A stretch of 64,000 nucleotides of DNA from Citromicrobium sp. (GCA_002729695.1 PBYQ01000035.1:65344-129343); one strand, 5' to 3'. Positions 14,643-47,580 are shown, counted from the first letter of the stretch. Notes: generated from the sequence alone by a model not told the origin. Numbers and translations are program-made.

Positions 14643-14654
14643 CGCGCCGCCGGG

Positions 14655-15527: not shown

Positions 15528-15557
15528 GCGTTCCGGTGTTCTGTTGGATGAAGAGCG

Positions 15558-15902: not shown

Positions 15903-16035
15903 AAGCGAAGGCACTCCATGCACTTAAATTTCGGGATCGACATGACCTATAGGTGTGTGCGCCGGAATTTTCAACGTGAATCCGCGCGCCGATCCTTGCT
16001 CGGGCGGACTACTGGAAAGCATTCCAAAAACACAG

Positions 16036-16130
16036 CTCCTCCCCCTTGAGGGGGAGGCTGGGTGGGGGTGTACCCCGGCCGCTGGCCCGGTACACCCACC
16101 CCAGACCCCTCCCCCAAGGGAGGGGAGAAC
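16036..16130. repeat. Structured G/C-rich REP-like element, family B, copy 1 (inverted relative to copies 2 and 3)
   Basis: CCCCCTTGAGGGGGAGG hairpin, then a central GGGTGGGGGTGTACC...GGTACACCCACCCC stem, then a CCCCTCCCCCAAGGGAGGGG hairpin. It abuts the dnaB stop. Confidence 0.75.
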
Positions 16131-16136
16131 TGGAGG

Positions 16137-29380: not shown

Positions 29381-29540
29381 GTGCAGGCCCTCCCCGTGTG
29401 CCCTCTGGCAAGGGTTTGCCGCCTCGCCCCCGGCTTGTCGAGCCCGCACAATTTCGCATGGCCTGCCCTGCCGCGGCCAGACGTTAGCTTCGCGGCAACC
29501 ATTCTCGCTCTCCGAATGGTAAGCCCTGCGCGGCAAAAGG

Positions 29541-30517: not shown

Positions 30518-30652
30518 ATGAAGCGGACTTTCCAGCCCAGCAATCTCGTTCGTGCGCGCCGCCACGGTTTCTTCGCACGCAAGGCGACTACCGGTGGCCG
30601 CAAGGTTCTCGCCGCGCGCCGCAAGCGTGGCCGCAAGAAGCTCTGCGCCTAA
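30518..30652 (+). CDS. rpmH: 50S ribosomal protein L34
   Basis: Own translation: [44 protein letters not shown]. Below the ORF-track size cutoff. Confidence 0.95.
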
Positions 30653-31404: not shown

Positions 31405-33189
31405 TTGGACAACCAGCGTAATCTCATCCTCGCCGTGGTGCTGTGCGGCATCCTGATCCTCGGTTACGATGCCGGCATCAGCTATTTCTACCCGACCCCG
31501 CCCGATACCGAGCAGGTCAACCGGGCGACCACGCCCGAGCAGCGGCGCGCGGCGGAAATCCAGGAAAACAGCGATGCGGGACCGGCTGCGACTCGCAACG
31601 CGGTCGCGGTCGATCAGGCAGAGACGGCGGTAGACCTCGAACAGGCGCTTGCTTCGGGCAACCGCGTGCGGATCGATGCGCCGCGGGTCGAAGGGTCGAT
31701 CAATCTTGTCGGCGCACGGATCGACGATATCGAGCTGAAGGATCACCGCGCGACGGTCGACAAGGACAGCGGCCCGGTGCAGCTGTTCGCGCCTGCGGGC
31801 ACTCCGATCCAGTATTTCGCGCAATTCGGGTTCGTCGGCGACGGCACCCAGCTGCCCGACGCGAAGACCGTCTGGAAGGCGAGCGGCGATGTGCTTTCGC
31901 CTGACAGCCCGGTGGAATTGCAATGGGACAATGCGGAGGGCCAGCGCTTTCGCATCCGCCTGTCGATCGACGACAATTACATGATCACCGCCGACCAGAC
32001 CGTGGCCAATATGGGCGACGGTCCGGTCGTGATCTCTCCCTTCGCGACGATCACGCGCACCAGCACCACATCGAGCAAGAGCACCTGGATTTCGCATTCC
32101 GGCCCGATCGGCTCGTTCGGCGGCTCGGTCGATTACGGCCCGGACTACAAGGATGTCGTCGAGGACACGGCGATTTCGGGTGCTGCCGATCCTGCCTGGA
32201 TCGGCTTTACCGACGTATACTGGCTCGGCGCGATGATCCCGCAGAGCGGCGCCGGGCTCAGCACCGGTTTCCGCTCGCTCGGCAATGATCTGTTCCGCGC
32301 GGACATGATCTACAACCCGACCACGCTGCGCCCCGGCCGCCAGATCACCCGCACTTCGCGCGTGTTTGCGGGCGCGAAGGAAAGCGGCGTGCTCGATCTC
32401 TATCAGGATCAGGGCATTTCGCAGTTTGGCCTCGCGATCGACTGGGGCTGGTTCCGCTGGTTCGAAAAGCCGATCCTGTGGCTGCTGCGCCAGATCTTCT
32501 CGGTCGTCGGCAATTTCGGCGTCGCGATCATCCTGCTGACCTGCATCGTGCGCGGGCTGATGTTCCCGATCGCGCAGAAGGGCTTCGCCAGCATGGCGAG
32601 CATGAAGGCGATCCAGCCTGAAATGAAAAAGCTGCAGGAGAAGTACAAGGACGACAAGGTCCAGCAGCAGCAGGAAATGCAGAAGCTGTTCAAGGAGCGG
32701 GGCGTCAATCCTGTCGCCGGCTGCCTGCCGATGCTGCTGCAGATTCCGGTGTTCTTCGCACTGTACAAGGTGCTGATCCTCGCGATCGAGATGCGCCACC
32801 AGCCGTTCGTCTTCTGGATTAAGGACTTGTCCGCTCCCGATCCGGCGCACATCCTCAACCTGTTCGGCATGCTGCCGTTCGAGGTGCCCGGGATGCTTGC
32901 TCTCGGCCCGCTCGCCTTGCTGCTCGGCTGCACGATGTGGCTGACCTTCAAGCTCAACCCGGCGGCGATGGACCCGGTCCAGCAGCAGGTCTTCTCGATC
33001 ATGCCGTGGGTGCTGATGTTCGTGATGTCGCCCTTCGCGGCCGGGCTGCTGCTTTACTGGAACACGTCCAACCTGCTGACGCTGGCACAGCAGAAGTACC
33101 TCTATTCCAAGCATCCGCAGCTGCGTGAGGCGGCGGATCGGGAACGGGCGGAAAAGGCGGCCAAGGCCCAGTCGGAAAGCAAGGCGTGA
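31405..33189 (+). CDS. yidC: Membrane protein insertase YidC
   Basis: 594 aa with a TTG start: N-terminal TM helix, large periplasmic domain and conserved C-terminal 5-TM core. Confidence 0.95.
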   Translation: MDNQRNLILAVVLCGILILGYDAGISYFYPTPPDTEQVNRATTPEQRRAAEIQENSDAGPAATRNAVAVDQAETAVDLEQALASGNRVRIDAPRVEGSINLVGARIDDIELKDHRATVDKDSGPVQLFAPAGTPIQYFAQFGFVGDGTQLPDAKTVWKASGDVLSPDSPVELQWDNAEGQRFRIRLSIDDNYMITADQTVANMGDGPVVISPFATITRTSTTSSKSTWISHSGPIGSFGGSVDYGPDYKDVVEDTAISGAADPAWIGFTDVYWLGAMIPQSGAGLSTGFRSLGNDLFRADMIYNPTTLRPGRQITRTSRVFAGAKESGVLDLYQDQGISQFGLAIDWGWFRWFEKPILWLLRQIFSVVGNFGVAIILLTCIVRGLMFPIAQKGFASMASMKAIQPEMKKLQEKYKDDKVQQQQEMQKLFKERGVNPVAGCLPMLLQIPVFFALYKVLILAIEMRHQPFVFWIKDLSAPDPAHILNLFGMLPFEVPGMLALGPLALLLGCTMWLTFKLNPAAMDPVQQQVFSIMPWVLMFVMSPFAAGLLLYWNTSNLLTLAQQKYLYSKHPQLREAADRERAEKAAKAQSESKA

Positions 33190-33918: not shown

Positions 33919-34587
33919 ATGAAACTGATCATCGGTAACAAGAACTATTCGAGCTGGAGCCTTCGCGGCTGGCTGGCGTGCAAGCAGGCGGGCCTCTCCT
34001 TCGAGGAAATCCTGGTGCCCTTGTTCGGAGAGGACTGGGAAGCGATCAGGCGCGGCGAGGGCGATCTGACGCCGTCATCGGGCAAGGTGCCGATCCTGTG
34101 GGACGACGAGGCGGTCGTGTGGGACAGTCTCGCGATCCTCGAATATCTGGCCGACAAGGTCGGGCGCGACCGATTCTGGCCCAAGGATGACAGCGCCCGG
34201 GCGATGGCGCGCGCCATGGTTGCGGAGATGCACAGTTCGTACCTGTCGCTGCGCCGCGAATGCCCGATGAACATCCGCACGCGCCACCAGAACGTGAAGA
34301 TATCCGAAACCACCCGGCAGGACGTTGTCCGCATCCTCGGCCTGTGGGCAGAGGCGCGCGCGCGTTTCGGCAGCGGCGGGCCGTTCCTGTTCGGCACCTT
34401 CGGGGCGGCGGACATTTTCTACGCCCCCGTTGTCAGCCGCTTCATCACCTATGGCTTCGGCGTGCCGGGATTTGCGGAAAGCTACATGCAGGCGGTCTGG
34501 ACGCACGACTGGCTGCAACAGTGGATCGCCGCGGCCGAGGACGAGCAATGGGTGATCGAGCAGTACGAGAGCGTCGCCGCCAATTGA
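33919..34587 (+). CDS. Glutathione S-transferase family protein
   Basis: MKLIIGNKNYSSWSLRGWLACKQAGLSFEE...VPILWDDEAVVWDSLAILEYL. Confidence 0.85.
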   Translation: MKLIIGNKNYSSWSLRGWLACKQAGLSFEEILVPLFGEDWEAIRRGEGDLTPSSGKVPILWDDEAVVWDSLAILEYLADKVGRDRFWPKDDSARAMARAMVAEMHSSYLSLRRECPMNIRTRHQNVKISETTRQDVVRILGLWAEARARFGSGGPFLFGTFGAADIFYAPVVSRFITYGFGVPGFAESYMQAVWTHDWLQQWIAAAEDEQWVIEQYESVAAN

Positions 34588-35471
34588 TCTTGCGTCCGGT
34601 TACGAGGTTGTGCGCGGCCCTGGCGGCTTTTGCGCTGCTGCTGCCGACGGCGGCTCATGCTTGGGGCTATTACGCGCACGGGATCGCCGCAGAGATCGCG
34701 CAGGCGAACATCCGGCCTGAAACGCGCGCGAAGCTGGAGCAGCTGTTCGCCGCCGAGCCGCTGATCGGCACGCCCGACTGCCCGCTCGGCAATCTGGTGG
34801 AGGCGGCGACATGGCCCGATTGCATCCGACGCGAAGGTTGGCGCTGGGGCTATACCTCGGCGTGGCACTATCAGACCGAGCCGGTGACCGAAGACTACGA
34901 CGCGCGCAAGAACTGCACGGGCGGCAATTGCGTCAGCGCGCAGATAGAGCGGAACTTCCGCATTCTCGCCGACGAGCGCCTGCCTGCCAACGTCCGGCTG
35001 CAGGCGCTCGCCTTCGTGGTCCACTTCACCGGCGACATTCACATGCCGTTGCATTCGGGCGATCTGGACGACCGGGGCGGTAACGACCGCGAGGCCGCCT
35101 ATGGCATCGCGCCGGGGCTCAACCTCCACTGGATCTGGGACGGTCCGCTGGCCGAACGCGCGATCACCAGCGCGCGGCCCTCGCTGGTGCGCCACCACAC
35201 CGCCGCCGAGCGCGCCGAGCTGGCGGGCGGCACGCCTGCCGACTGGGGCCGCGAGAGCTGGGAGACCGCGCGCGATTTCATCTATCCTAACGCCTTCGAT
35301 CGCAGCCCGCTCAACGGACCGCTGCCCGATGAGACCGCGCTGACGCAGGAGGCTATCGAAGCTGCGATTCCGGTATCGCAGCGCCGGGTAACCCAGGCGG
35401 GCCTGCGGATTGCCGACCTGCTTGACCGCGCGATGGAGCCGGGACCGCTGCCTGAGCCCGCGGGCGATTAG
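34584..35471 (+). CDS. S1/P1-family nuclease (secreted)
   Basis: No in-frame ATG, so a TTG start is inferred at 34584 (alternatives 34590, 34608). Signal ...AAFALLLPTAAHAWG. Metal motifs HFTGDIHMPLHSGDLDDRGGN. Confidence 0.8.
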   Translation: MILRPVTRLCAALAAFALLLPTAAHAWGYYAHGIAAEIAQANIRPETRAKLEQLFAAEPLIGTPDCPLGNLVEAATWPDCIRREGWRWGYTSAWHYQTEPVTEDYDARKNCTGGNCVSAQIERNFRILADERLPANVRLQALAFVVHFTGDIHMPLHSGDLDDRGGNDREAAYGIAPGLNLHWIWDGPLAERAITSARPSLVRHHTAAERAELAGGTPADWGRESWETARDFIYPNAFDRSPLNGPLPDETALTQEAIEAAIPVSQRRVTQAGLRIADLLDRAMEPGPLPEPAGD

Positions 35472-35484
35472 GGCGTGCGCTTCG

Positions 35485-35500
35485 CTGCGTAGCGTGTGCC
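35485..35500 (+). repeat. Left direct repeat (candidate attL core) of the genomic island
   Basis: CTGCGTAGCGTGTGCC. This is 15/16 identical to 45967-45982 and in the same orientation. Confidence 0.65.
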
Positions 35501-35913
35501 CGGTCAACCGGGTTTCTGGCTGCGTGTTCGGATCCGGTCTCACTGCGATCAATGGCCTGAGAGTTTTAATCTATTTTCCAGTGGATTGACGCGCCTTCTA
35601 GCGGCATCCGAGCGGAAAAGTTTTCTCAAGATGGTTCCAAAGTCAGGGCTTAAAATCACGCTCTGTTCCGAAATGGGGACCAAATAGCCAACATGCATAT
35701 CCTACCATCCGTCGGACGCACGCAGCCACTTCCAACTGCTTGCTTGACCCTATCGAAGAATTGTTGAACTAGAAGCACATGCTCATAGCGAAACTGCCTG
35801 CACTGAATCGTTCCGCCTTTGGCGACGAGCGGTTTGGCGCGCGCAATTACCGCGCCCTGCTGCCCAATCAAAGCGCTGCGCCCTAGTTCGGTCACCACCC
35901 AGACAAAGGACGC

Positions 35914-35944
35914 AGCCCCGCCGAGAAATCGACGGGGCTTTTTT
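35914..35944 (+). terminator. Rho-independent terminator just upstream of hen1, with no annotated gene in front of it
   Basis: AGCCCCG-ccgagaaatcga-CGGGGCT followed by TTTTT(T). Confidence 0.55.
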
Positions 35945-35961
35945 GTACCCGGATAGAGAAA

Positions 35962-37368
35962 ATGCTTCTGACAATCTCCACCACTCACAGGCCTGCTACC
36001 GACCTCGGCTTCCTCCTGATGAAGCATCCGGAGAACGTCCATTCGGTCGACCTGCCGTTCGGATCAGCGACTCTGTTCTACCCAGAGGCCGGGGAGGATC
36101 GATGCACCGCCGCGATTACTCTGGAGGTCGATCCGGTCGCACTGGTCAGGGGCAAGGCAAGCATTGAGGATCAGTACGTCAACGACCGGCCTTATGCCGC
36201 GTCATCGCTACTGTCGGTCGCCCTTGGCCGCCTTCTCAATACCGCAATGGGCGGTCGATCGAAGCTGCGTCAAGAGCTTGCTGATACCGCGATCCCGCTT
36301 GAATGTTCTCTTACGCCTCTCCCGGCCAGGGGGTCGGCTGACCTTCTGGCGCGCATGTTCGAACCGTTGGGATACTCGGTCGAGGCAGAAGCAATTCTGC
36401 TCGATCCGGCGCATCCAGAGTGGGGGGCTAGCCCATACGTGTCGCTGAACATCAAAGGCACGGTAAGGATTCAGGACCTGCTTACGCACCTCTTCGTACT
36501 CATTCCGGTGCTGGACAATTCCAAGCACTATTACGTGGGCGAGGATGAGGTCAAAAAACTGCTGCAAAAGGGTGGCGAATGGCTTGAGGCTCATCCTGAA
36601 AAGGAACTCATCGTTCGTCGTTACCTGCTCGGGTTCCGGTCGCTCATGCGGTCAGCAACCGAGCAACTAGAGGAGCGGGTTGAAGCGGAAGAACCGGAGG
36701 AACACGCATCGCGCGATGCCGAGGAAGAAAAGATCGAAAAGCCGATCCGGCTCAACACGCAGCGCATGGATTATCTGGCGGACTTGATCCGTAAACTCGG
36801 GGCGTCGAGCGTACTCGATCTTGGTTGCGGAGAAGGCCGGCTGTTGCGCCAGCTTCTCACGATCAAGGGTCTCGACCGCATTGTGGGCGTGGAGGTCGCG
36901 CCGCGCGTTCTGGCAAAAGCAGGTGACCGGCTGAAGCTGGAGCACATGCCGGACATCAAGCGCAAGCGGATTGAGCTGATGCAAGGCTCGCTCGTGTACC
37001 GCGACGATCGACTGAAGGGTTTCGACGCGGCCGCCCTTGTGGAGGTTATCGAGCACATCGATGCAGAGAGGTTGCCAGCACTGGAAGCGGCCTTGTTCGG
37101 TCACGCGCGACCGGCAAACGTGATCGTGACCACTCCCAATAGCGAATACAACGTCCTTTTCGAAGGGATGGAGCCAGGCGCCATGCGGCATTCGGACCAT
37201 CGGTTCGAGTGGTCGCGTTCCGAATTCCACCATTGGGCGGAATCAGTTGCGAAGGCGTACGGCTACGAGGTCCGATACGAAGGCATTGGGAGCGAAGATC
37301 CAACTTATGGTCACCCGACACAGGTCGCCATCTTTTCACGCGTCGATGCGGTGAAGGAGGCGGCATGA
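35962..37368 (+). CDS. hen1: Bacterial Hen1, 3'-terminal RNA ribose 2'-O-methyltransferase
   Basis: N-terminal MLLTISTTHRPATDLGFLLMKHPENVHS...FYPEA (bacterial Hen1 N-domain). C-terminal SAM motif VLDLGCGEGRLL and EVIEHID. Confidence 0.9.
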   Translation: MLLTISTTHRPATDLGFLLMKHPENVHSVDLPFGSATLFYPEAGEDRCTAAITLEVDPVALVRGKASIEDQYVNDRPYAASSLLSVALGRLLNTAMGGRSKLRQELADTAIPLECSLTPLPARGSADLLARMFEPLGYSVEAEAILLDPAHPEWGASPYVSLNIKGTVRIQDLLTHLFVLIPVLDNSKHYYVGEDEVKKLLQKGGEWLEAHPEKELIVRRYLLGFRSLMRSATEQLEERVEAEEPEEHASRDAEEEKIEKPIRLNTQRMDYLADLIRKLGASSVLDLGCGEGRLLRQLLTIKGLDRIVGVEVAPRVLAKAGDRLKLEHMPDIKRKRIELMQGSLVYRDDRLKGFDAAALVEVIEHIDAERLPALEAALFGHARPANVIVTTPNSEYNVLFEGMEPGAMRHSDHRFEWSRSEFHHWAESVAKAYGYEVRYEGIGSEDPTYGHPTQVAIFSRVDAVKEAA

Positions 37369-39908
37369 AGATCGAGATTCCAGAATTCGCGCTTGTCCTT
37401 CTGGTTGGCGCGTCGGGTATGGGCAAGTCTACCTTTGCGTCGAAGCACTTCCTGCCGACTGAGGTCGTATCCTCGGATCGCATGCGTGGTTGGATTGCCG
37501 ATGACGAGACTGACCAGTCCGCCACCGGCGACGCCTTCGACGTGCTCCATTTCATCGTCGAGAAACGGCTCAAGAACCGGCGGTTCACGGTCGTTGATGC
37601 AACCAGTGTACAACCGGAATCCCGCAAGAGCCTGGTCGCGCTTGCCCGCAAATGGCACGCCCTGGTCGTCGCCATTACCTTCGAACTGCCCGAAGAAGTC
37701 GCACTTGCTCGCAACGCCGAGCGTCCCGACCGCCAGTTTGGTGCAGGACCGGTCCGTCGCCAGATGCTCAATCTGAAACGCTCCATCAAAAGCATGGGGC
37801 GCGAAGGCATCCGCTACGTGCATCGCTTGCGCTCCATCGAGCAGGTGGAGGCGGTCGAGATAACGCGGACGCGCCTTTGGACTGACCGTCGCGAAGACTC
37901 CGGACCGTTCGACATTATCGGTGACGTGCACGGTTGTGCCGATGAACTCGAAACCATCTTGGACGAGCTTGGCTATCAAGTTTCGTGGGATGGCAAGGAC
38001 GTCCATGTAACTCCACCTGAAGGTCGCAGGGCGATCTTCGTTGGTGACCTCGTTGATCGTGGACCGCGTTCACCTGACGTCCTGCGTATCGCGAAACACA
38101 TGGTGGACTCCGGCACTGCCTTGGCCGTGGTCGGAAACCACGATGACAAGCTGAAGCGCCATCTGTCTGGCCGCAACGTCAAGCCGACGCACGGCCTTGC
38201 CGAGACCATCGAGCAGCTTGGTAGCGAGCCGCCGGAGTTCTTGGCTGAGATGCGCGAGTGGCTCGACGGTCTTTTGAGTCACTACCTGCTCGACGATGGG
38301 AAGCTCGTCGTCGCCCATGCCGGTCTAAAGGAAGAAATGCAGGGCCGCGCCTCTGGCGCGATCCGCAGCTTCTGCATGTATGGTGAAACGACTGGCGAGG
38401 TCGATGAGTTTGGCCTCCCCGTCAGGTGGGACTGGGCATCCGAATACAAGGGTCGCGCAAAGGTCGTTTACGGGCACACCCCGGTGCTCGAAGCGAACTG
38501 GGTCAACGGCACGATTTGCATCGATACCGGCTGCGTGTTCGGCGGCAAATTGACCGCTCTTCGCTACCCCGAACTTGAGTTGGTATCGGTCGACGCCGAG
38601 CAGACCTACTACGAGCCGATCAGGCCACTTGGTGGTCCCGCAGCCGATACGGGGAGCACGCCTGCACATCAGCTCAACATCGCTGACGTGCTCGGCAAGC
38701 AGGTAATCGAAACTGGCCTCTATGGTCATGTGACGGTGCGTGAAGACAACGCCGCTGCCGCACTAGAGGTAATGACTCGGCACGCAGTCGATCCGCACTG
38801 GCTGATCCATCTGCCGCCGACCATGTCGCCAGCGGAAACGAGCGCACAGGAAGGATGGCTAGAGCGGCCGGAAGAGGCCTTCGCCTATTACGGCTCGAAG
38901 GGCGCACGAAAGCTTGTGCTCGAAGAAAAGCACATGGGCTCGCGCGCGCTCATCGTGCTGTCGAAAACCCAAGAAACCGCGGCAAAGCGCTTTGGCGTTC
39001 ACGATGGTTCTCGAGGAACCATCGTGACCCGAACCGGTCGGCGCTTTTTCAACGATGCCGAATTGGAGGCGTCGGTTCTGCACCGCGTGGACCAGGCGAT
39101 GGAGAGTTCGGGCCTGTGGACTGAGCTCGATACCGATTGGGTCCTGTGGGACTGTGAAATCATGCCTTGGAGCATGAAGGCCGGTGCGCTTGTGCGCGGC
39201 CAATACGCTTCAGTTGGCGCAGCCGCCAACTCTGGATTGTCTGCCCTCGATGCCGCTTTGCAGGCTGCCATCGCACGTGGCGTGGATGTCAAAGATTTGG
39301 GCGCGCGAGTGTCCCAGCGCGTCGAAGACGCGGCGAGCTATCGCGAAGCGTACAATCGGTATGTCCACCCGTTCGAGGGCATAGCAGATCTGAAGATCGC
39401 ACCGTTTCATCTTTTGGCATCTGAGGGTCAGGTACATTCCGATAAGGATCACCTCTGGCACATGGGGATGGCTCACAGGCTATGTGCGGCTGACGCAGAC
39501 CTACTGCTTGCGACCGAATATCGAGCTCTCGATCTCGACGACGCTACTCAGGTTCAAGAGGCAATCGAATGGTGGGAGGCCATGACCGCCAAGGGTGGCG
39601 AGGGCATGGTGGTCAAGCCGCTCGACTTCATCGCTCGCGGTCGGCGCGGCCTTCTGCAACCTGCCATCAAGTGTCGGGGGCGGGAGTATCTGCGGATTAT
39701 CTATGGCCCGCACTACGACCGACCAGGCAACATCGAGCGGCTGAAAAAACGAGGACTTGGCCAGAAGCGGTCAATGGCATTGCGCGAATTCGCGTTGGGG
39801 ATCGAGGCGCTGAAACGGTTCGTCGACCACGCTCCGCTCACACGCGTGCACCAATGCGTGTTCGGAGTGCTGGCGATGGAGAGTGAGCCGGTTGATCCGC
39901 GGCTTTAA
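37365..39908 (+). CDS. pnkp: Polynucleotide kinase-phosphatase (Pnkp), with kinase, phosphoesterase and ligase-like domains
   Basis: ATGA overlap with hen1. P-loop GASGMGKST; calcineurin-type GDVHGC, GDLVDRGP and GNHD; C-terminal nucleotidyltransferase-like region containing EEKHMGSR. Confidence 0.9.
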   Translation: MKIEIPEFALVLLVGASGMGKSTFASKHFLPTEVVSSDRMRGWIADDETDQSATGDAFDVLHFIVEKRLKNRRFTVVDATSVQPESRKSLVALARKWHALVVAITFELPEEVALARNAERPDRQFGAGPVRRQMLNLKRSIKSMGREGIRYVHRLRSIEQVEAVEITRTRLWTDRREDSGPFDIIGDVHGCADELETILDELGYQVSWDGKDVHVTPPEGRRAIFVGDLVDRGPRSPDVLRIAKHMVDSGTALAVVGNHDDKLKRHLSGRNVKPTHGLAETIEQLGSEPPEFLAEMREWLDGLLSHYLLDDGKLVVAHAGLKEEMQGRASGAIRSFCMYGETTGEVDEFGLPVRWDWASEYKGRAKVVYGHTPVLEANWVNGTICIDTGCVFGGKLTALRYPELELVSVDAEQTYYEPIRPLGGPAADTGSTPAHQLNIADVLGKQVIETGLYGHVTVREDNAAAALEVMTRHAVDPHWLIHLPPTMSPAETSAQEGWLERPEEAFAYYGSKGARKLVLEEKHMGSRALIVLSKTQETAAKRFGVHDGSRGTIVTRTGRRFFNDAELEASVLHRVDQAMESSGLWTELDTDWVLWDCEIMPWSMKAGALVRGQYASVGAAANSGLSALDAALQAAIARGVDVKDLGARVSQRVEDAASYREAYNRYVHPFEGIADLKIAPFHLLASEGQVHSDKDHLWHMGMAHRLCAADADLLLATEYRALDLDDATQVQEAIEWWEAMTAKGGEGMVVKPLDFIARGRRGLLQPAIKCRGREYLRIIYGPHYDRPGNIERLKKRGLGQKRSMALREFALGIEALKRFVDHAPLTRVHQCVFGVLAMESEPVDPRL

Positions 39909-42244
39909 GTACGGACCCTGGCCCGCTGCCGGAGGCGTTCATAAAGCTGCACCTCCGCTTCGTGTGACAGTTCGACTGTCACAGCAAAATTCTGGCGACC
40001 AACGTCTCCAGCCCAACCACCCGCGCAGCGGACCACAAGGTAATAGTTGTCGCCGTATTGCTGGATGTCTCTTGAGAAGGTCACAGAAGCAGTTTGAAGA
40101 CTTGATTTCTCGCGGATCGTAGAACTTGGACTCAAATCGCAGTTGTAGCGGTTCTCAACTCGCGGAAACGGCCCTTCCTCTGCGGTTCGCTGGCGAAAAT
40201 GCTCAAAGATCAAGTCAGGCTCACAGCCCCGGATGAGCCGAAATCCCATAGAGACACCATTATAGTCGAGACGACTGTGTCGAACCGGCGGATCATAGGC
40301 TAAACTCACGCGGACCGTGCGGCGGCCGCGCTCCGTTTGAAATGCGTCTGGGATGGGTATCTGGTAAACAGCGAAATGATCGATCTCGAGCTCATCCTCA
40401 GCATAGAGAATGACCCGCGCATCGTCGGAGAACGACGCCCTTTCGGCATCTACTAGCCCATGTCCGCAAAGGTCGAGGGCCGCTCGTCCTCCCAACGGCT
40501 CAAGACGCCTCAGTGCCTCTTCTGGAGGAAGAGCACTGCTTGCTAGAAGTGCGCGAACAAGATTTGCAGATGCATCAGGAAAGCGAGCCAGTATTTGGCT
40601 CGCCTTGAAAGCGACGAGTGGAGCGGCGTACGACGTACCCGAATAGGTCGCAAACAAGCGATCTATTGGCCGATAATGAAGCGAGACAACACCGGCTTCG
40701 GGCCTTGCTTCGCCGCCGCGCAACGCAATTGCTTGCCCGTCATAAATCAGCGTTCCGCCAATGTCTGCGAAATCGGGCTTGATCGATCCCCGCACACCCG
40801 GTCCGGCACGTGAGAACGGAGATGGCTCGTTCAGATCGGCGATGGGACGAATTCCGATATTCTCTTGAGCTTGTCGGCCCAGGCCATTGCTATGCGCAAG
40901 CGAACCGACGGTAACAATGTTCATTCCGCCCGCCGGTTCACAAAGGCGGTTGCTTGGTTCGACCAGATAGCGAGGATATTCCGTAACCGCCTCTTCGATT
41001 CTGTTGCCACCTCGCGGTTGGTGATTTCCGGCGGACACGATGATGACCACGTCCAGCTCACGGACAAGTTCGTCGAGGGTTTGCGTCCAAGGGCCAACCT
41101 TGGATCCTTCGATGAGCTTTTTACGATCACCCAGCGCCACCACAAAAATACGGCAACCAAACTCATCGTGTAAGCGGGTGACAGCCTCGCGCATTAGACG
41201 CGGAGTGAGCCGACTATTCGGAAATCGCCCCCGATCATCCACTACCTTCGCCGAGCAGAGCCTTGCGTAGCGAACCAGCCTCTCCTGCCCAAGCTGAGCC
41301 CGCAAATCGCCAAAGGCGGCTATTCCTCCGACAAAGGTGCCATGGCAAAAATCATCGGCAGTACCGAGCGTGTCCGGAATGGCGATGGATCCCGCGATAA
41401 CGTCTTCAATTAGAGGGTGATCGTTGATCCCGCTATCAATGATGCCAATTAACGGGAGATCGTCGGTCGCGTCCTCGGGGTCTGGCACATCCGCCAACGG
41501 TCGCTCGATTAACTCACTCGTGGTGAGATCGGGCTCAGGCGGAAAGTCGAGTTCGGCGATCTCCTCGATGTTCAGCAGACTGCGGGCCACCGTTCCATCG
41601 GCACGCAATCGAAGCATCGTCAAATTTGGACCAATGTGACGGTCCAACTCTTCTGCCCCGAGGGCCTCTGAGTATGCAGCGATGTCGTCGAGCTTGCGCT
41701 CACGCAAGGCTCGTGGTCCCAAATCCCAAAGTTCGATATCGAGTATATACTCTACACCCGCCTGGAAATCGTCGACCTCAACCAAGCCTTCCTCGCGCGC
41801 GCGCATCCCAATGCGATCACGCGGCGCGACCTCGGCGATCGCATCAACATTTGCGATGAAAGCGGCATAAGCCGGGTTCTGCCGACCCGGCTGCGTTCCT
41901 TGCCCATAGCTGTCTAGCTTGTTCCGGAACTCATCAAGTTCATCACTGTCGGCAAACAAAATGAGTGTGCGATCCTCGTCGCTCGAGAGGACAGTCAGCC
42001 CAACTTTCGCCCACTCATCCTCTTGGAGTGCCCCATGCATCTGGACACGCAAAATAAGTGATGGATCGACGGAATCAGGTCTGCGTCGCCTTCTTTGTGA
42101 CGCTATTGCTTCGTCGAGCTCGTCGCTGAGCTGGCGGCTGTGCCCGCCGGGATTTCGTTGCGGTGGTGGCCCACCGCCGCCGGTTTTGCGGCGAGGGAGG
42201 CGCTCCGGCAGCCTGACAAGCTCAAGGTGATCGTAGCGAGGCAA
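39905..42244 (-). CDS. Cytoplasmic S8 (subtilisin-like) serine peptidase, IetS-like
   Basis: 779 aa, TTG start. Triad D270 (IGIIDSG), H301 (FCHGTFV) and S538 (SGTSYAAP), oxyanion N407 (SAGN). It has a ~265-aa N-terminal and a ~240-aa C-terminal extension. The N-terminus is charged and has no signal peptide. Confidence 0.85.
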   Translation of the reverse strand: MPRYDHLELVRLPERLPRRKTGGGGPPPQRNPGGHSRQLSDELDEAIASQRRRRRPDSVDPSLILRVQMHGALQEDEWAKVGLTVLSSDEDRTLILFADSDELDEFRNKLDSYGQGTQPGRQNPAYAAFIANVDAIAEVAPRDRIGMRAREEGLVEVDDFQAGVEYILDIELWDLGPRALRERKLDDIAAYSEALGAEELDRHIGPNLTMLRLRADGTVARSLLNIEEIAELDFPPEPDLTTSELIERPLADVPDPEDATDDLPLIGIIDSGINDHPLIEDVIAGSIAIPDTLGTADDFCHGTFVGGIAAFGDLRAQLGQERLVRYARLCSAKVVDDRGRFPNSRLTPRLMREAVTRLHDEFGCRIFVVALGDRKKLIEGSKVGPWTQTLDELVRELDVVIIVSAGNHQPRGGNRIEEAVTEYPRYLVEPSNRLCEPAGGMNIVTVGSLAHSNGLGRQAQENIGIRPIADLNEPSPFSRAGPGVRGSIKPDFADIGGTLIYDGQAIALRGGEARPEAGVVSLHYRPIDRLFATYSGTSYAAPLVAFKASQILARFPDASANLVRALLASSALPPEEALRRLEPLGGRAALDLCGHGLVDAERASFSDDARVILYAEDELEIDHFAVYQIPIPDAFQTERGRRTVRVSLAYDPPVRHSRLDYNGVSMGFRLIRGCEPDLIFEHFRQRTAEEGPFPRVENRYNCDLSPSSTIREKSSLQTASVTFSRDIQQYGDNYYLVVRCAGGWAGDVGRQNFAVTVELSHEAEVQLYERLRQRARVRT

Positions 42245-42251
42245 TGACAGC

Positions 42252-43238
42252 TCATGCTTCAGCTATACGCGCTGTGCGTCTACGCCGCCGCCGCTCATCA
42301 GCCAATGCATCGAGGAAGTCCTTTTCCGAAACCTGCTTTCGCTGATCGATGATCGATGCCTTGATCGCCTGAACACAGATCCTTTCCAGTTCAGCGTAGG
42401 AGTATCCATCTAACCCATCCAAATGAGCCTCGGGATCGAACTGCAATGGAACGTTCTTAAATTTCATTCGAAGGAAGCGAGCGGCCATTCGTCGATCAGG
42501 ACGGTCAAACCATATTACTTCGTCAAAACGCCGCCATATCGCGGAATCCAGAGATTGGTCGAAGTTGGTCGCAGCTACCAAAAAGCCTTTCGGTTGGATC
42601 CGATCAATGAATATCAGGAGGCTATTCACTACCCGGCGCAACTCGCTGTGCTCGCCATCTTCGCTCCGTGCACGGGCTAGCGCATCAAACTCATCGAAAA
42701 AGAGGACAGTAGGTTGCTTGCGAGCAAACTCGAAGATTTTGCGGATATTTGTCGCTGTTTCGCCAAGGTATGACGAGATTAGCCGGTCAATCTTAACGAT
42801 ATAGAGCGGCAAACCGAGTTCTGCAGCGAACACTTCAGCACACAATGTCTTGCCGCAGCCTGGCGGCCCGCAGAAAAGCAATTTGGAGCGCACAGGCAGG
42901 CCGCGCCGACGGATTTCGTCGCCGCGACGATATTCTCGCAGCAACGACAAGAAGATTCGCACATTCTCGGAGGACAGTACGATGTCCTGTTTGTTGTGTG
43001 ACGGCTCGACCAGCTCGATGAAATCACCAGCTGACTCTGGGAATGGAATTAATGGCGCAAGGCCTCTCGGCTTTGATCGCGGCGAAGGGCCGGCCTCCAA
43101 GGATTTGCGCAGCGAACGAGCCAGAACGCGGTTATTTTTCTTCTCCTCTTCGCCGATGATCTGCTCGGCCACAGCGCGGAACTCTTCGTCCCGGCCGTAA
43201 CTTGCCAGCAGCTTTTTCATCAACTCACCGCGCGCCAT
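42252..43238 (-). CDS. Classic-clade AAA+ ATPase, IetA-like
   Basis: Walker A GPPGCGKT, Walker B VLFFDEFD, sensor-1 ATN, and RRFD. It ends 7 nt upstream of the S8 gene. The start is uncertain (TTG 43271, ATG 43238 or ATG 43220). Confidence 0.85.
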   Translation of the reverse strand: MARGELMKKLLASYGRDEEFRAVAEQIIGEEEKKNNRVLARSLRKSLEAGPSPRSKPRGLAPLIPFPESAGDFIELVEPSHNKQDIVLSSENVRIFLSLLREYRRGDEIRRRGLPVRSKLLFCGPPGCGKTLCAEVFAAELGLPLYIVKIDRLISSYLGETATNIRKIFEFARKQPTVLFFDEFDALARARSEDGEHSELRRVVNSLLIFIDRIQPKGFLVAATNFDQSLDSAIWRRFDEVIWFDRPDRRMAARFLRMKFKNVPLQFDPEAHLDGLDGYSYAELERICVQAIKASIIDQRKQVSEKDFLDALADERRRRRRTARIAEA

Positions 43239-43423
43239 TCTCTTCCATTCAACCGAAGTCGCCCCAGACAACTATAGCGATTGTTCTCTAAATCGCCAGC
43301 AATGACGCGCAAGCGGATCACCGAACCTTTCGGAGCTATCTCGCTCTGGCGAAAGGATTCCTCTGGCGAAGAATCACAATCCGTATGCGCACCTTGTGCT
43401 TGTCCACATTTCGTCCACAAGGA

Positions 43424-44641
43424 TCAATTCCAAAGCGACTGATTTCCCCCGCACATTCGTTCGACTGCGTCGCCAATCTGCTGCGTCGCATCTAGCAAGT
43501 GGTCATCATCCAAATGCGCATACCGGGCCGTCGACTGGTGGTTCGCATGGCCAAGCAATCGACCGATCATGGGCAGCGTTTCCTTGTTCATGGCGGCATG
43601 GCTGGCGAAGGTGTGTCGCAGGTCATGGATGCGGACGTGACCAAGTCCGGCACGTTCGCGGATGCCTTTCCATGCCCAGGCCACATCGCGCATTTGCCGC
43701 CGGTACCGGTAGTTCCAGAACAGCCAAGGCAGTTTCCGATGGCGTGGAATGCCAGCAATGACCTCTCGTGCGGCGGAGCCGAGCCAGACGGTGCGCGGTC
43801 CTGTCTTGCTGTCGCGAAGGTTCAGCCGATTTCCCTTCACTTCGCCCCAGTGCAGATTGAGTATCTCGCCTCGTCGACAGCCGGTCAGCAGCAGCAAGGT
43901 GATTGCCGCGCCTTCACAGCGGGCGGTCAGATCGTCGCTCTCCCGTAGCTTCGCAAGCTCGATGCCGACGCGCCCCAGCTCTTCAACCGTCAAAAACCGC
44001 TCGCACTGGCGTTTGCGGTTTGGTCGGATCGACCGGCACGGGTTGGTATTCTCCAGCCGATACCCCCACGCCTCAGCCTTGTTGAGCATGTGCTTGAGGA
44101 TTTCGAGGGTCCGATTGGCAGCACCCGGACCGGTGCGGTTGTTGAGCTCGGCAAACCACTTGGTCACATGCTCTTCGTTGACCTCGTCGATGAAGACGCC
44201 CTTGAAGGCGTCATCGAGGTAGAGCCGCCGGTAGCGTGTGTGTGAATCGAGCGTCGAGGCTTTCCAACGCGGCGACCAGCGGGTCCAATATTCCTCAAGG
44301 AAATCGTCAAACCTCGGCGCGGATCGAATGCGCTTGCGATCGGTGGCCGGATCGCGCCCCACCTGCGCGTAGGCAATGACGCGGCGCGCGACCATTTGCG
44401 CCTGATGGCGCGTGAGGACCGAAGCCGGGCCGATAGTCACGGTGCGGAGCCTGCCGCCCATCCGGGTCTGTACGATGTAGACGTTCCGTCCGCTGGGATA
44501 GTGACGGATGCCGAAGCCGTGCTCGATCCCGAGCCAGGTAGTCGTCCGTGCCTTGCCCTTGGGAACGAGCCTGAAGTTTACCGATGCTCCAACCTCGGCC
44601 AGTGCCTCTTCGACGATGCGCTTGAGGCTGGCAGCGGTCAT
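43424..44641 (-). CDS. Tyrosine-type site-specific integrase (second of a tandem pair)
   Basis: 405 aa, with a DUF4102-like N-terminus. C-terminal catalytic motifs: LTGCRRGE, HDLRHTFAS, LLGH and ARYAHL. Confidence 0.9.
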   Translation of the reverse strand: MTAASLKRIVEEALAEVGASVNFRLVPKGKARTTTWLGIEHGFGIRHYPSGRNVYIVQTRMGGRLRTVTIGPASVLTRHQAQMVARRVIAYAQVGRDPATDRKRIRSAPRFDDFLEEYWTRWSPRWKASTLDSHTRYRRLYLDDAFKGVFIDEVNEEHVTKWFAELNNRTGPGAANRTLEILKHMLNKAEAWGYRLENTNPCRSIRPNRKRQCERFLTVEELGRVGIELAKLRESDDLTARCEGAAITLLLLTGCRRGEILNLHWGEVKGNRLNLRDSKTGPRTVWLGSAAREVIAGIPRHRKLPWLFWNYRYRRQMRDVAWAWKGIRERAGLGHVRIHDLRHTFASHAAMNKETLPMIGRLLGHANHQSTARYAHLDDDHLLDATQQIGDAVERMCGGNQSLWN

Positions 44642-45810
44642 GACCGCAGTCCAATCGCCTGTGCCAGCGAGCCTGAAATACGTTCGGCGGCATCGCCGAT
44701 CACGTCATCGGACAGATGCGCGTACTTCGCCGTCGTCTCCGGCAAGACGTGACCGAGCAGCTTGCCGATAGTGGCGAGCGGCACGTTGTCCATGATCGCG
44801 GTCGAAGCGAAGCTGTGCCGCAGATCGTGGACGCGCAGGTCGGGCATCGCGCAGCGTCGCCGCAGATTGTACCACCACGGCTCGATGTTGACCGGGTGCT
44901 TGCCCCGTGAGTTTACGAACACCAGCGCGTCATCTTCACCGCGCTCAAATCCGGCCAGCACCTCCAGCGCCTGTGAATTGAGCCAGATCACCTTCGGGCC
45001 GGTCTTGCTGTCGGGCAGCACGAGCCGGGGCGGTTTAACCATTCCCCATCGAAGAAACCTGATCTCGCCCAACCGGGCTCCGGTGAACATCAGCAGCCGC
45101 ACTATTGCGACCGGGATGGGATGCTCGGCTTCGGCCTCACGCAAAGCCGCGCCCAAGCGGCGATACTCTGCAGGTGTGAGGTACCGCTCCATCTTCGGGC
45201 GCTTGAAGCGCGGCATTCCCCGGCAAGGGTTCGATCCCTTGCGCCGCATCCGCAGCGCCTCGGCGTATTTCATGAGCGAGGCGAGTACGGGCACGGCGCG
45301 GTTGAAGCTTGTTTCGCCTGCCCCAGAGCAGCCGTCGCGCCAGCGGTGGATGTCGGCGGGCATGATGTCCGCCACCCGCATAGCGCCAAATTCCGGCTCG
45401 ATGGAAAGCCGCCACGCATTGCGATTGCGCTTGATCGTCGAAGGCTTCCAGACCCGCGAAAGGTCATCCCAATACGTCTCGACGAAATCGGAAAGCGTTG
45501 GCGTGGCTTTGACCACGGCACGCTTGGGCAGACCGTCCAGCGCCACCTCAGCCAGAATGCGCCGCGCTTGTGCCCTTGCTACGCCAGCGTCCAGTTCATC
45601 GGTTCGGCCAAGCGAAATCCGGCGATGCTTGCCGCGATGTCGTACGCGGACAAACCAGAAGTAATTGCCGCTCGGCCTGACACGCAGGCCGAACCCGGCA
45701 AGCTCAGTATCCCAGATGCAATATTCGGTCTCGCGAAGCGGCAGCTTGCGCCGCGCGAAATTACCATCGAGCAGTGCCCGGCGCCCGGGCTTTCGCCGCC
45801 TGGGGACCAT
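44638..45810 (-). CDS. Tyrosine-type site-specific integrase (first of the tandem pair, next to the right repeat)
   Basis: FTGARLGE, HDLRHSFAS, LLGH and AKYAHL. The start is chosen at the internal ATG 45810 (MVPRRRKPG...) because the 45951 start would overlap the cupin gene. ATGA overlap with the next integrase. Confidence 0.85.
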   Translation of the reverse strand: MVPRRRKPGRRALLDGNFARRKLPLRETEYCIWDTELAGFGLRVRPSGNYFWFVRVRHRGKHRRISLGRTDELDAGVARAQARRILAEVALDGLPKRAVVKATPTLSDFVETYWDDLSRVWKPSTIKRNRNAWRLSIEPEFGAMRVADIMPADIHRWRDGCSGAGETSFNRAVPVLASLMKYAEALRMRRKGSNPCRGMPRFKRPKMERYLTPAEYRRLGAALREAEAEHPIPVAIVRLLMFTGARLGEIRFLRWGMVKPPRLVLPDSKTGPKVIWLNSQALEVLAGFERGEDDALVFVNSRGKHPVNIEPWWYNLRRRCAMPDLRVHDLRHSFASTAIMDNVPLATIGKLLGHVLPETTAKYAHLSDDVIGDAAERISGSLAQAIGLRS

Positions 45811-45919
45811 ATGGCAATCGTCACTAGCAAAACTGCCCCCAAAAGTCGCGGAATTACCGTCATTTGCGGGGACCGGATGGCCTTCAACAGCATGCCTGCT
45901 GTCGAGCACTTCCAGCATC

Positions 45920-46417
45920 TCACGCACTGATTTTACGGCATTTTTTCCCATACCATGGCAGTCTTACTGCGTAGGGTGTGCCGTCCTTGCGTGCGTAGCC
46001 TTCGGCATCGAACACCATGTCGATATCGGGGTACTCGCCCGAGTCCTTGTCCTTCGCCCCCGCGCTGATCGCGACGAATACGCAATCGGCATTGCTGCAG
46101 TTCTGAAGGTGATGGCCGTTTTGAACGCCCGCTGCCCAAGCGACGACATCGCCGGGGCGGATCACGGTTTCACCTTCATCTTCCACCAGTACCGCTTCGC
46201 CCGAGAGCATCACCAGCAGCTCGTCTTCTTCGCTGTGCCAGTGTCGCTGGCTCGACCAAGCGCCCGGCTTCAGCGTCACATGGCTCGCGCCCATGCGCGT
46301 CAGCCCGGCAACGGGCGCGAGGCGGCGATACCAGCGGCCCTGCACCTCGGCATCGAACGGGGTGGGGTAGCCGGTCGCGTTGGTCTGTGGGATCGCGTCG
46401 AGATCGAGCTTGGGCAT
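45920..46417 (-). CDS. Cupin domain protein whose last 13 codons are island-derived
   Basis: Cupin core: HWHSEEDELLVMLSGEAVLVEDEGETVIRPGDVVAW. After ...KDGTPYA the C-terminus reads VRLPWYGKKCRKISA, encoded left of the attR repeat. Confidence 0.75.
   Translation of the reverse strand: MPKLDLDAIPQTNATGYPTPFDAEVQGRWYRRLAPVAGLTRMGASHVTLKPGAWSSQRHWHSEEDELLVMLSGEAVLVEDEGETVIRPGDVVAWAAGVQNGHHLQNCSNADCVFVAISAGAKDKDSGEYPDIDMVFDAEGYARKDGTPYAVRLPWYGKKCRKISA
45967..45982 (+). repeat. Right direct repeat (candidate attR core) of the genomic island
   Basis: CTGCGTAGGGTGTGCC. It lies inside the 3' end of the cupin ORF, where it encodes GTPYA. Confidence 0.65.
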
Positions 46418-46446
46418 TGGCGAAGTCTCCTGCTAGCGCAAAGGAC

Positions 46447-47580
46447 ATGACTGATGTTCTCGACCTCGCCAAGCGGCTGATCGCCGCACCCAGCGTCACC
46501 CCCGCAACCGGCGCGGTGTTCGACGAGATGCAGGCGATGCTGGAGCCGCTCGGCTTCGTGGTGAACCGATTTACCCGTGGCGCGGGCGCTGCCGGCAGTG
46601 ACGAGGCCCCGGTCGAAAACCTGTTCGCGATCCGCACCGGGGCAGGGCCGAAGCACTTCGCCTTTGCCGGGCATCTCGACGTGGTCCCGCCGGGGGAGGG
46701 CTGGGAAAGCGGAGCGTTCGAGCCCGAAATCAGGGGCGACCTGCTCTACGGGCGCGGCGCGGTCGACATGAAGGGCGCGATCGCCTGCATGGTCGCCGCC
46801 GTCGCCGACGTACCCGCCGATGCCGGGACGATAAGCTTCATCATCACCGGCGACGAGGAGGGGCCTGCGCTCCACGGCACGCGCGCGCTGATCGATTTCA
46901 TGCACGCGAACGGCCACGCGCCCGACCTGTGCCTTGTCGGCGAACCCACCAGCGTCAACCGGCTGGGCGACATGATGAAGATCGGCCGTCGCGGCTCGGT
47001 CAACATGTGGCTGACCGCCAGGGGCACGCAGGGGCACGTCGCCTACCCGCACCTCGCGGACAATCCGATCCCGCGCCTCGTCGCCGCGATGGCGGAGCTG
47101 GAAGCGCTCGAGCTGGACGAGGGCACCGACTGGTTTCAGCCGAGCAATCTGGAGATTACCGATATCGAGGTCGGCAATCCGGCGCACAACGTGATTCCCG
47201 GTGAAGCGCGGGCGCGCCTCTCGATCCGGTTCAACGACCTGCATTCGGGCGCTTCGCTGAGCGAGAAGGTCACCGCGATCTGCGCGCGGCATCAGGTGGA
47301 TGTGCGTCCCGTGATCTCGGGCGAGCCGTTCCTGACCCCGCCGGGCGATTTCTCCGCAATGGTCAGCGCGGCGGTGGAGGCCGAGACCGGCGTATCTCCC
47401 GAGCCATCCACCACCGGCGGCACCTCCGATGCACGCTTCCTTCGCGCTGTGTGCCCGGTGATCGAATTCGGTCTGCTCAACGCAACCATGCACAAGCGCG
47501 ACGAGGCTGTTGCGGTGGCCGACCTCGCCGTGCTCACGCGCATCTATACGCGGATAGCGCGCGCCGCCTTGGCATCGTAG
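46447..47580 (+). CDS. dapE: Succinyl-diaminopimelate desuccinylase
   Basis: Internal ATG at 46447: MTDVLDLAKRLIAAPSVTP, HLDVVPPG, GRGAVDMKG, ITGDEEG. Confidence 0.9.
   Translation: MTDVLDLAKRLIAAPSVTPATGAVFDEMQAMLEPLGFVVNRFTRGAGAAGSDEAPVENLFAIRTGAGPKHFAFAGHLDVVPPGEGWESGAFEPEIRGDLLYGRGAVDMKGAIACMVAAVADVPADAGTISFIITGDEEGPALHGTRALIDFMHANGHAPDLCLVGEPTSVNRLGDMMKIGRRGSVNMWLTARGTQGHVAYPHLADNPIPRLVAAMAELEALELDEGTDWFQPSNLEITDIEVGNPAHNVIPGEARARLSIRFNDLHSGASLSEKVTAICARHQVDVRPVISGEPFLTPPGDFSAMVSAAVEAETGVSPEPSTTGGTSDARFLRAVCPVIEFGLLNATMHKRDEAVAVADLAVLTRIYTRIARAALAS

Follow-up and report, generated by a model that had tools for sequence, protein, structure and literature searches.

The stretch of DNA analysed here, referred to as the window, comprises 64,000 nucleotides from Citromicrobium sp. 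(GCA_002729695.1 PBYQ01000035.1:65344-129343) and carries, at 35485-45982, a site-specific integrative island of about 10.5 kb in the chromosome of its host, a member of the Erythrobacteraceae. The island is bounded by two copies of a 16-bp core and encodes two tyrosine recombinases next to its right end, where a short hairpin leads into the core. To judge from its sequence, this combination of core and covarying hairpin has the architecture of the nic region in an origin of transfer (oriT) of the MOBF type, as found in the plasmids F and R388. The features on which the argument depends are as follows.

34260-35471, plus strand: S1/P1 nuclease gene in the left flank, host chromosome (Pfam S1-P1_nuclease, E 9e-44).
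35468-35500, minus strand: orphaned original 3' end of the cupin gene, GTRYAAKRTP plus stop by translation, severed from its gene by the insertion.
35485-35500, plus strand: left, integrase-distal 16-bp core CTGCGTAGCGTGTGCC, with the host-type base at position 9 and the nic-equivalent at 35497|35498.
35501-35961, no strand: non-coding distal arm of about 460 bp, whose open reading frames (ORFs) have no Pfam match.
43424-44641, minus strand: int2, tyrosine recombinase of 405 aa (Pfam Phage_integrase, Arm-DNA-bind_3 and SAM-like domains).
44638-45951, minus strand: int1, tyrosine recombinase of 437 aa (arm-binding, SAM-like and catalytic domains).
45920-46417, minus strand: hybrid cupin gene of 165 aa, with residues 1-150 native and the last 15 (VRLPWYGKKCRKISA) island-derived, overlapping the start of int1.
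45958-45970, plus strand: island-borne hairpin GCAGT-ctt-ACTGC, directly 5' of GTAGGGTGT, the counterpart of inverted repeat 2 (IR2) in R388 and of the hairpin in the F oriT.
45967-45982, plus strand: right, integrase-proximal 16-bp core CTGCGTAGGGTGTGCC, with the element-type base at position 9 and the nic-equivalent at 45979|45980.

The two cores are identical at 15 of 16 positions and lie in the same orientation, as a first-pass annotation of this DNA had described, and they are the sole matches in the window when up to two mismatches are allowed (shuffle mean 0.16). They bracket the drop in composition which that annotation had pointed out, the G+C content being 0.585 between the repeats and 0.658 in the remainder of the window, while all other stretches of 10.5 kb have at least 0.647; its single-line counts of 27/60 at 40081-40140 and 38/60 at 33001-33060 agreed with our recount. 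Inside the island, the G+C content rises to 0.62 in the integrase module. The accompanying estimate, that a chance match of this quality is well below 1%, was somewhat optimistic. Dinucleotide shuffling gave a match of at least 15/16 between two 500-bp zones in 5 of 1000 trials, and 4 of 201 pairs of real zones from other parts of the window also had one; the 16-bp repeat alone is therefore suggestive and not decisive.

A chance origin of the repeat is excluded by an empty site. In two contigs, L001 and L002, the flanks are 98-99% identical to those of the window and the island is absent. By BLASTN, positions 1-10451 of L001 correspond to window 56417-45967 (98.2%) and positions 10436-17193 to window 35500-28743 (99.3%), so that the two homology blocks overlap by precisely the 16-bp core, which is single-copy in the empty site. 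L001 reads ...GGGCGTGCGCTTCG-CTGCGTAGCG[C]GTGCC-GTCCTTGCGTGC..., the unoccupied form that had been predicted for a relative together with the proposal of a discrete integrative island bounded by the repeats. The same contig excludes the opposite outcome, namely relatives having the genes at this site without the repeats or breakpoints which do not coincide with them.

The insertion target is the 3' end, comprising the last codons, of the protein-coding cupin gene. In the window, the cupin ORF contains the right repeat in its 3' end and has a 165-aa product which ends ...KDGTPYAVRLPWYGKKCRKISA, and on the minus strand the left repeat together with 17 further bases encodes the severed peptide and its stop codon. 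Nearly all cupin orthologues found are 155 aa long, as are all the uninterrupted ones which share the same extent (92-93% query coverage, the majority of the matches listed), and the ten for which the sequence was read all end ...KDGTRYAAKRTP, which is the same C-terminus as that of the orphaned tail. The sole exception to this length was one 165-aa cluster, P0001. On L001 and L002, which have the 155-aa form, the cupin and S1/P1 nuclease genes are convergent and share 4 bp, among the same neighbours as in the window. Three marine metagenome contigs (L003-L005) were observed to carry the same island at the same site, with a 165-aa cupin and with proteins 100% identical to those of the window. 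A tRNA or tmRNA gene as target was rejected, in line with the earlier statement that the island has no tRNA target: none was found in the window, none lies adjacent in 36 related loci, and Rfam gave no match in 34000-47500. An exact look-up of the nuclease protein gave no match. The cupin/nuclease junction of the empty site (window 35470-35500) also contains an imperfect 10-bp palindrome (GGCGTGCGCT ... AGCG[C/T]GTGCC) which includes the core and may be a shared terminator, its folding energy not being significant (z = -1.1).

The presence of two integrases beside the right repeat was likewise borne out, since tyrosine recombinase domains and catalytic residues occur in both. The int1 gene overlaps the start of int2 by 4 nt, and its start codon is separated from the hairpin by 6 nt and from the right core by 15 nt. 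The two proteins share 35% identity and the P4-type arm-binding, SAM-like and catalytic layout, and alignment to the P2 and HP1 integrases showed that R, HxxR, H and Y are kept in each. The integration is probably catalysed by int1 and int2. A scan with int1, at one genome per species, gave 60 loci, all from Sphingomonadales, of which 58 are informative and form the basis of the counts below. An int2 homologue begins where int1 stops in about 55 of the 58. We also considered a composite of two tandem islands, in view of the two integrases and the G+C content of their module, and rejected it, as there is no third core, the genes overlap and they co-occur at about 55 of 58 loci. The multi-recombinase elements known as RIT trios, GInt and Tn554 are defined by at least three recombinase genes in a fixed array or by a TnpA/B/C set; an element of this kind was rejected too, the island having only two recombinases which are 35% identical and both P4-type.

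The resemblance of the attachment site to a MOBF oriT is best seen when the sequences are set side by side. Positions 45958-45982 of the plus strand read GCAGT-ctt-ACTGC-GTAGGGTGT-GCC, the F oriT reads GCAAAAAC-tt-GTTTTTGC-GTGGGGTGT-GG (PMC3074121), and the R388 oriT (NC_028464) reads GCACC-gaaa-GGTGC-GTATTGTCT-AT. In all three the 3' arm of the hairpin ends in GC and is followed by GT(A/G) and six further bases, the segment after the hairpin being GTAGGGTGT in the window, GTGGGGTGT in F and GTATTGTCT in R388. The IR2 hairpin of R388, together with the single-stranded stretch which leads to nic, forms the recognition element of the relaxase (PMC4176350). By this correspondence, the nic of the window is predicted at GCAGTCTTACTGCGTAGGGTGT|GCC (GTGT|GC). 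The island copy differs from the plasmid sites in being chromosomal and in standing beside an integrase gene and not beside relaxosome genes.

The arrangement was found to be conserved across the family. In every locus GCACACC-N-TACGC occurs about 30 nt upstream of the int1 start, and a palindrome follows, the first arm of which starts at the final GC of this motif. The start codon of int1 is 6-10 nt from the hairpin in all loci, with a conserved MGK N-terminus. A perfect stem of 4-7 bp is present at the hairpin position in 54 of 58 loci, where stems of at least 5 bp arose in 0.6% of shuffle trials. The stem sequence itself is variable: eleven different stems were listed (including GCAGT, GCGGT, GCGGCT, GCACC, GCACCAT, GCACCTT, GCAAGC and GCGAT), and a twelfth, GCATGC, is found in L052 and L063, two loci which the anchor search had missed. 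Folding energy does not reach significance with stems this short; what argues for the hairpin is its covariation and not its energy. On the target side, a perfect hairpin was observed in seven of the ten flanks first compared and is absent in the cupin site and two others. Two islands added later, L015 (17859-17895) and L019 (18963-19000), have the target hairpin GCAGC...GCCGC with a single G.T-type mismatch, which would be tolerated in a folded single strand and not in a double-stranded palindrome.

Many members of the family are located at the position typical of an oriT in MobF conjugative plasmids and in ICEs (integrative and conjugative elements), with variable cargo. At least 16 of about 58 related loci occupy the motif-bearing position of such elements, between the leading-region genes and the genes for a ribbon-helix-helix (RHH) protein, a type IV coupling protein (T4CP) and the MobF relaxase. 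In L014, L015, L019 and L024 the outer flank on the int1 side contains ParB-like, YAcAr/DUF2493, DUF6437 and orf117 genes, and the outer flank on the far side contains a second hairpin, then the genes for the RHH protein and for a coupling protein of the TrwB type. The beginning of the MobF relaxase comes next in L015 and L024. This RHH-T4CP-MobF order is that of trwA-trwB-trwC in R388, with the hairpin on the same (operon) side. In about 15 of 58 loci the orf117 gene is found upstream of int1 at a distance of no more than about 1 kb, and in L069, a MOBF-typed Aurantiacibacter plasmid, orf117 and a single-stranded DNA-binding protein gene are found at the same place. Contig L066 has the same flank motif beside the core.

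When the reconstructed empty oriT of L014 was used as a query, no alignment across the junction was obtained in plasmids, the intergenic sequence having diverged too far, and only orf117 was matched. This match led to plasmids in which the motif is intact. The orf117 gene is conserved on 27 sphingomonad plasmids, 20 of which are typed as conjugative, and a single intact motif is present on each of four island-free plasmids, namely pSWIT01, Croceicoccus marinus plas2, the Sphingopyxis 113P3 plasmid and pNXO2. In all four the motif is intergenic and lies 236-525 bp upstream of the RHH/T4CP/MobF genes; a distance of about 240 bp, on the side corresponding to R388, adds to the likeness with the MOBF oriT. 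The pSWIT01 motif is GCACACCGAAC-GCACC-tc-GGTGC, with a stem identical to R388 IR2.

The islands also appear to move between hosts. For twelve islands, with lengths of about 5 to 11 kb, the fetched DNA includes both ends, and the core is present as a direct repeat in each. The constant parts of the family members are the int pair and the two ends only; the cargo varies between related loci, and a cupin neighbour was seen in none of the 60 loci of the int1 scan. The int module is 92-94% identical in DNA (97-98% in protein) in Novosphingobium, Sphingobium and Qipengyuania, and a decayed island in Altericroceibacterium indicum (L056, 9971-17567), with int1 and int2 fragmented, has DNA remnants which are 90-97% identical. 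In Citromicrobium bathyomarinum MCCC1A09709 (L006, 9971-20219) the island is 96% identical over 10.25 kb and occupies a different site. Identities of this level across genera indicate a recent horizontal transfer of the island or its int module. The L006 copy lies beside leading-region genes typical of MobF plasmids and ICEs, and from the equivalent of window position 35733 its far end is replaced by ArsR-type regulator genes; it has no second core and looks rearranged or stranded. A Sphingobium contig from a metagenome-assembled genome (L010, 1-3513) has a second int1/int2-like pair of about 50% identity, in the opposite orientation and 3.6 kb from the main pair, which may represent islands of this family that are nested or lie side by side.

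Differences between the paired cores help to locate the strand exchange. They all lie on the hairpin side of GCACAC in the window, L008, L033 and L040, and the host-type base at position 9 of the left core and the element-type base in the right core place the predicted crossover within GCACAC(C), a segment of 6-7 bp which would span the predicted nic (GTGT|GC). We read the cupin 3' end as a secondary site which matches 15 of the 16 core bases by chance, because it has no hairpin on the 5' side of the left core while seven of ten target flanks have a perfect one.

No relaxase, T4CP or mating-pore genes were found among the island ORFs, all of which are either assigned or without a family, and the window gave no match to T4CP or TrwC. 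The first-pass annotation had reported the absence of excisionase, replication and transfer genes, and none emerged in the domain searches of the island ORFs. The island thus has no relaxase, coupling protein or pore and yet keeps a full hairpin-plus-nic, which leads us to predict that it is mobilised in trans by MobF elements, the hairpin and core of the attachment site probably acting as an oriT. In the proposed cycle, int1 and int2 would recombine the attachment site of the circular island (attP) with a nic-like target (attB), with the exchange inside GCACAC(C). Once excised, or while situated between two copies of a plasmid oriT, the hairpin-plus-nic of the island would be recognised by a co-resident MobF relaxase and its type IV secretion system (T4SS), and the island, encoding neither relaxase nor pore, would be transferred in trans. 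Insertion in a plasmid oriT would create two oriT-like copies in direct orientation, such that initiation at one and termination at the other could release the island alone.

Expression of the recombinases may be tied to the circular form, in which the distal arm would stand directly upstream of int1. About 200 bp of this arm are conserved in islands with other cargo, and TTGACC occurs at 35502-35507 (minus strand), 2 nt from the left core. TTGAC(C/A), or TTGCC in one island, was found 1-2 nt from the core in nine of the ten distal arms first compared, and the later additions L015 and L019 also have TTGACC near the core. In the circle, TTGAC(C/A) would come to stand 16-17 nt from the TA in the loop of the hairpin. 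We suggest, with low confidence, that joining of the two ends creates a promoter (TTGACC of the distal arm, a spacer of 17 nt and the loop TA) which exists only in the circle and which may turn on int1-int2. Read-through from the cupin gene is possible in the integrated state, where the cupin ORF extends across the hairpin and shares 32 nt with int1.

The same geometry offers a reason for the presence of two different recombinases. The site is asymmetric, with TACGC and a hairpin arm on one side and TTGAC(C/A) on the other in attP, and by analogy with XerC/XerD the two proteins might divide the labour as a heteromer.

Taken together, we favour with a probability of roughly 0.7 the reading that this is a relaxase-less mobilisable island which normally inserts into plasmid oriTs and which here resides in a chromosomal look-alike site. 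A bolder version, to which we give slightly less than even odds, is that in a family of alphaproteobacterial islands one short sequence would be both attachment site and oriT, so that the recombinases insert exactly at the MobF nic of plasmids and ICEs, the island is the first DNA to enter the recipient, two working oriTs allow its relaxase-driven solo transfer, and chromosomal copies plant an oriT of the plasmid type. Several observations weigh against the favoured reading. The hairpin is short and its folding energy in the window is unexceptional (z = -0.44); the motif was absent from pCAR3 at one or fewer mismatches; and no MobF relaxase, T4CP or T4SS gene lies in the 64-kb window, so that a helper in this genome is putative. 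We know of no mapped oriT for these sphingomonad plasmids, and the oriT is called by its resemblance to F and R388 and by its position only. No excisionase was found among the island ORFs. The -10 element of the proposed junction promoter is poor (TAAGAC), and a simple sigma-70 promoter scan and a terminator scan of 35400-36100 found nothing in the distal arm. The predicted circular junction, ...CCGGTTGACCGG-GCACAC[C/G]CTACGCAG-TAAGACTGCC..., had no matches in JGI metagenome contigs, where absence from assemblies does not exclude excision. The pattern of the integrase-proximal end had none in IMG/VR; its metagenome matches were only two further integrated copies, L066 and L067. Finally, binding of the integrases could be the only reason why hairpin and core are kept.

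This last point is the core of the best surviving alternative, which we regard as unlikely: an ordinary integrase island in which hairpin and core bind the integrases and have no oriT function, the likeness to an oriT arising only from the choice of plasmid oriTs as usual target. The island would then not be mobilised from its own site and would travel with plasmids and ICEs only as a passenger. An element which targets oriTs must carry an oriT-like sequence in any case, since attP and attB have to share sequence, and the arms of a palindrome can covary by co-evolution with a protein which binds both; the unremarkable folding energy is also in keeping with a protein-binding site. Such an island, however, leaves it unexplained why the whole hairpin is kept, including the arm outside the region shared with the target, and why its spacing to GTA-N-GGTGT is exactly that of F and R388. 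The G.T-type mismatch in the target hairpins of L015 and L019 fits folding of a single strand, and nearly identical int modules occur in five genera on islands with no transfer genes of their own.

A second alternative leaves the integrases aside and has a MobF relaxase strand-transferring the island into a chromosomal pseudo-nic site, as TrwC does with minimal targets of 17 bp. Here the 16-bp repeat would consist of 13 nt 5' and 3 nt 3' of the predicted nic, which is near the 14+3 minimal TrwC target (PMC3264647), and the acceptor site tolerates a less stringent sequence (PMC3264647); it needs no hairpin, and the cupin target has none. The bases at position 9, host-type on the left and element-type on the right and in either case 5' of the nic, agree with this model as well, but an exchange by an integrase within GCACAC would leave the same pattern of polymorphism. 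All of the roughly 58 islands have two recombinase genes intact within a few bases of the site, and it is difficult to see why if these genes serve no purpose; TraI of F, the closer relative of these relaxases, shows no oriT-oriT recombination (PMC3264647). The product described for TrwC by Agundez et al. (2012, PMC3264647) resembles the island in being flanked by two copies of the nic region and in arising at a nic-like target of about 17 bp without need of a full hairpin; it differs in being relaxase-catalysed, with no integrase, and in being known from laboratory constructs only. We consider this explanation quite improbable. That one "integrase" is a tyrosine-recombinase-like relaxase (MOB_M; TcpM, MpsA or MobK type) acting on the adjacent hairpin while the other integrates, as might be suspected because such relaxases are annotated as integrases and usually lie beside one with an oriT close by (SGI1 MpsA, PMC6414798; preprint 10.64898/2026.01.13.699239), is very improbable, given that int1 and int2 are paralogues of 35% identity with the full P4-type arm-binding, SAM-like and catalytic layout, that neither has significant BLASTP similarity to TcpM (E 0.24 and 0.41), and that the neighbouring site, which genuine MobF relaxases also have upstream, belongs to the HUH/MOBF type.

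The favoured reading, that of a relaxase-less mobilisable island, is best judged against known systems. SXT/R391 mobilisable genomic islands and other oriT-mimicking islands have an integrase, no conjugation genes, a copy of the helper's oriT and an insertion at the 3' end of a protein-coding gene. In these islands, oriT and attachment site are separate loci, there is a single integrase, and the MOB family is another one. The family described here departs from the nearest described systems, the IME_oriTs and the iOriT islands, in four ways, which are the phylum, the targeted MOB class, the two recombinases and the merged att/oriT-like sequence. No description of such a family was found in the full-text literature searched, the coverage of which is incomplete, so that this is absence of evidence only.

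A close parallel is found in the IME_oriTs of Firmicutes, which have a tyrosine integrase and insert in oriTs (PMC7563843). Those of streptococci and staphylococci (Libante et al. 2020, PMC7563843) are likewise small, integrative and mobilisable with variable cargo; the conjugative element serves them as both host and helper, and a few copies are found in target-like, secondary chromosomal sites. They belong to Firmicutes, target the oriTs of MobT (Rep_trans) elements, and have one integrase and their own relaxase (PMC7563843), whereas the present island is from Alphaproteobacteria, has MOBF-type sites and two tandem recombinases, and has no relaxase, a Rep_trans (MobT-like) relaxase domain being absent from every island ORF. 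The window copy is in a chromosomal cupin gene and not in an ICE oriT, and L014, L015, L019, L024 and L069 are at the oriT-typical position of MobF and not of MobT elements. Islands which carry only an oriT are described as common in a preprint (Ares-Arroyo et al., bioRxiv 10.64898/2026.01.13.699239). These iOriT islands have an integrase and an oriT, lack relaxase and mating-pore genes, depend on a helper, and have defence genes clustered near the oriT, features which are either observed or predicted in the present island too; they differ in coming from six nosocomial species and in having mostly a single recombinase (10.64898/2026.01.13.699239). The text consulted gives neither an oriT which is the attachment site nor an insertion into the oriT of the helper (10.64898/2026.01.13.699239).

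Most genomic islands have no known means of transfer, and this one offers a concrete and testable mechanism: an attachment site shaped like a plasmid transfer origin may explain how an island without transfer genes spreads. The "possibly mobilisable" of the first-pass annotation thereby becomes a specific prediction. If the favoured reading is true, the strategy of integrating into the oriT of the helper would extend from Firmicutes (MobT) to Proteobacteria (MOBF), attachment site and oriT would be merged in one element, and the asymmetric site would supply a reason for paired recombinases. It would also account for the passage of defence and RNA-repair cargo from one sphingomonad genus to another and for its arrival in the leading regions of plasmids. 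For annotation, the signature of such islands is an int pair beside GCACACC-N-TACGC and a hairpin.

The cargo of the window island consists of four genes.

35962-37368, plus strand: Hen1, RNA 3'-terminal 2'-O-methyltransferase (NCBIfam TIGR04074, 670.7 bits, cut-off 340; Pfam Hen1_L).
37365-39908, plus strand: Pnkp, polynucleotide kinase-phosphatase-ligase (NCBIfam TIGR04075, 1360.5 bits, cut-off 750; Pfam PNKP_ligase, AAA_33 and Metallophos).
39905-42244, minus strand: IetS-like S8 peptidase (PADLOC IetS, E 1e-117, residues 3-777; Pfam Peptidase_S8).
42252-43271, minus strand: IetA-like AAA+ ATPase (PADLOC IetA, E 1e-84; Pfam AAA; NCBIfam 240 bits, cut-off 510).

The conflict-type cargo noticed in the first pass was thus given names by profile searches. 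Hen1 and Pnkp are adjacent and both score above their equivalog cut-offs, which identifies them by profile as the bacterial Pnkp-Hen1 RNA repair system; the start of Pnkp overlaps the stop of Hen1 by 4 nt and is fixed by the 847-aa gene call in L003-L005. The ietA- and ietS-like genes are 7 nt apart. The peptidase also scores under the cut-off of the NCBIfam anti-phage model, and since both equivalog scores are under their cut-offs, the pair is classed by its profile matches as a divergent member of the IetAS anti-phage system. Upstream of Hen1, an ORF of 128 aa (35656-36042) belongs to no family and overlaps the Hen1 start. None of the six ORFs in 35472-36050, this one included, had a Pfam match at E <=1 in a search for an excisionase or other small protein.

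Other members carry different genes. In L056, IetAS is absent while Pnkp-Hen1 and both core copies are kept. The cargo of L014 (12529-18105) includes a Z1-domain protein and a further 398-aa ORF which may be a C5 DNA methyltransferase, and that of the Aurantiacibacter plasmid L069 (10320-14202) comprises sorbosone dehydrogenase and exopolysaccharide genes.

Synteny with L001 indicates that the window covers the chromosomal origin region, with fpg, rpsT and dnaA on one side and rpmH, rnpA, yidD, yidC and engB on the other.

About 53854-55311, minus strand: dnaA, by synteny with L001.
31405-33189: yidC.
About 30518-30652: rpmH.

The island is about 8 kb from dnaA. If the bolder reading, in which one sequence serves as both attachment site and oriT, is true, an oriT at this distance and pointing into the origin region could drive chromosome transfer of the Hfr (high frequency of recombination) kind in the presence of a compatible plasmid. 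At the other end of the shared region, homology between the window and L001 stops at 28743, inside a ComM/YifB-like Mg-chelatase gene (window 27872-29641, minus strand) which is intact in the window. In L001 (16556-18872) the ComM/YifB-like gene is cut short and is followed by a large serine recombinase. In L001, therefore, comM is occupied by an element and the cupin site is free; in the window it is the cupin site that is occupied and comM that is free.

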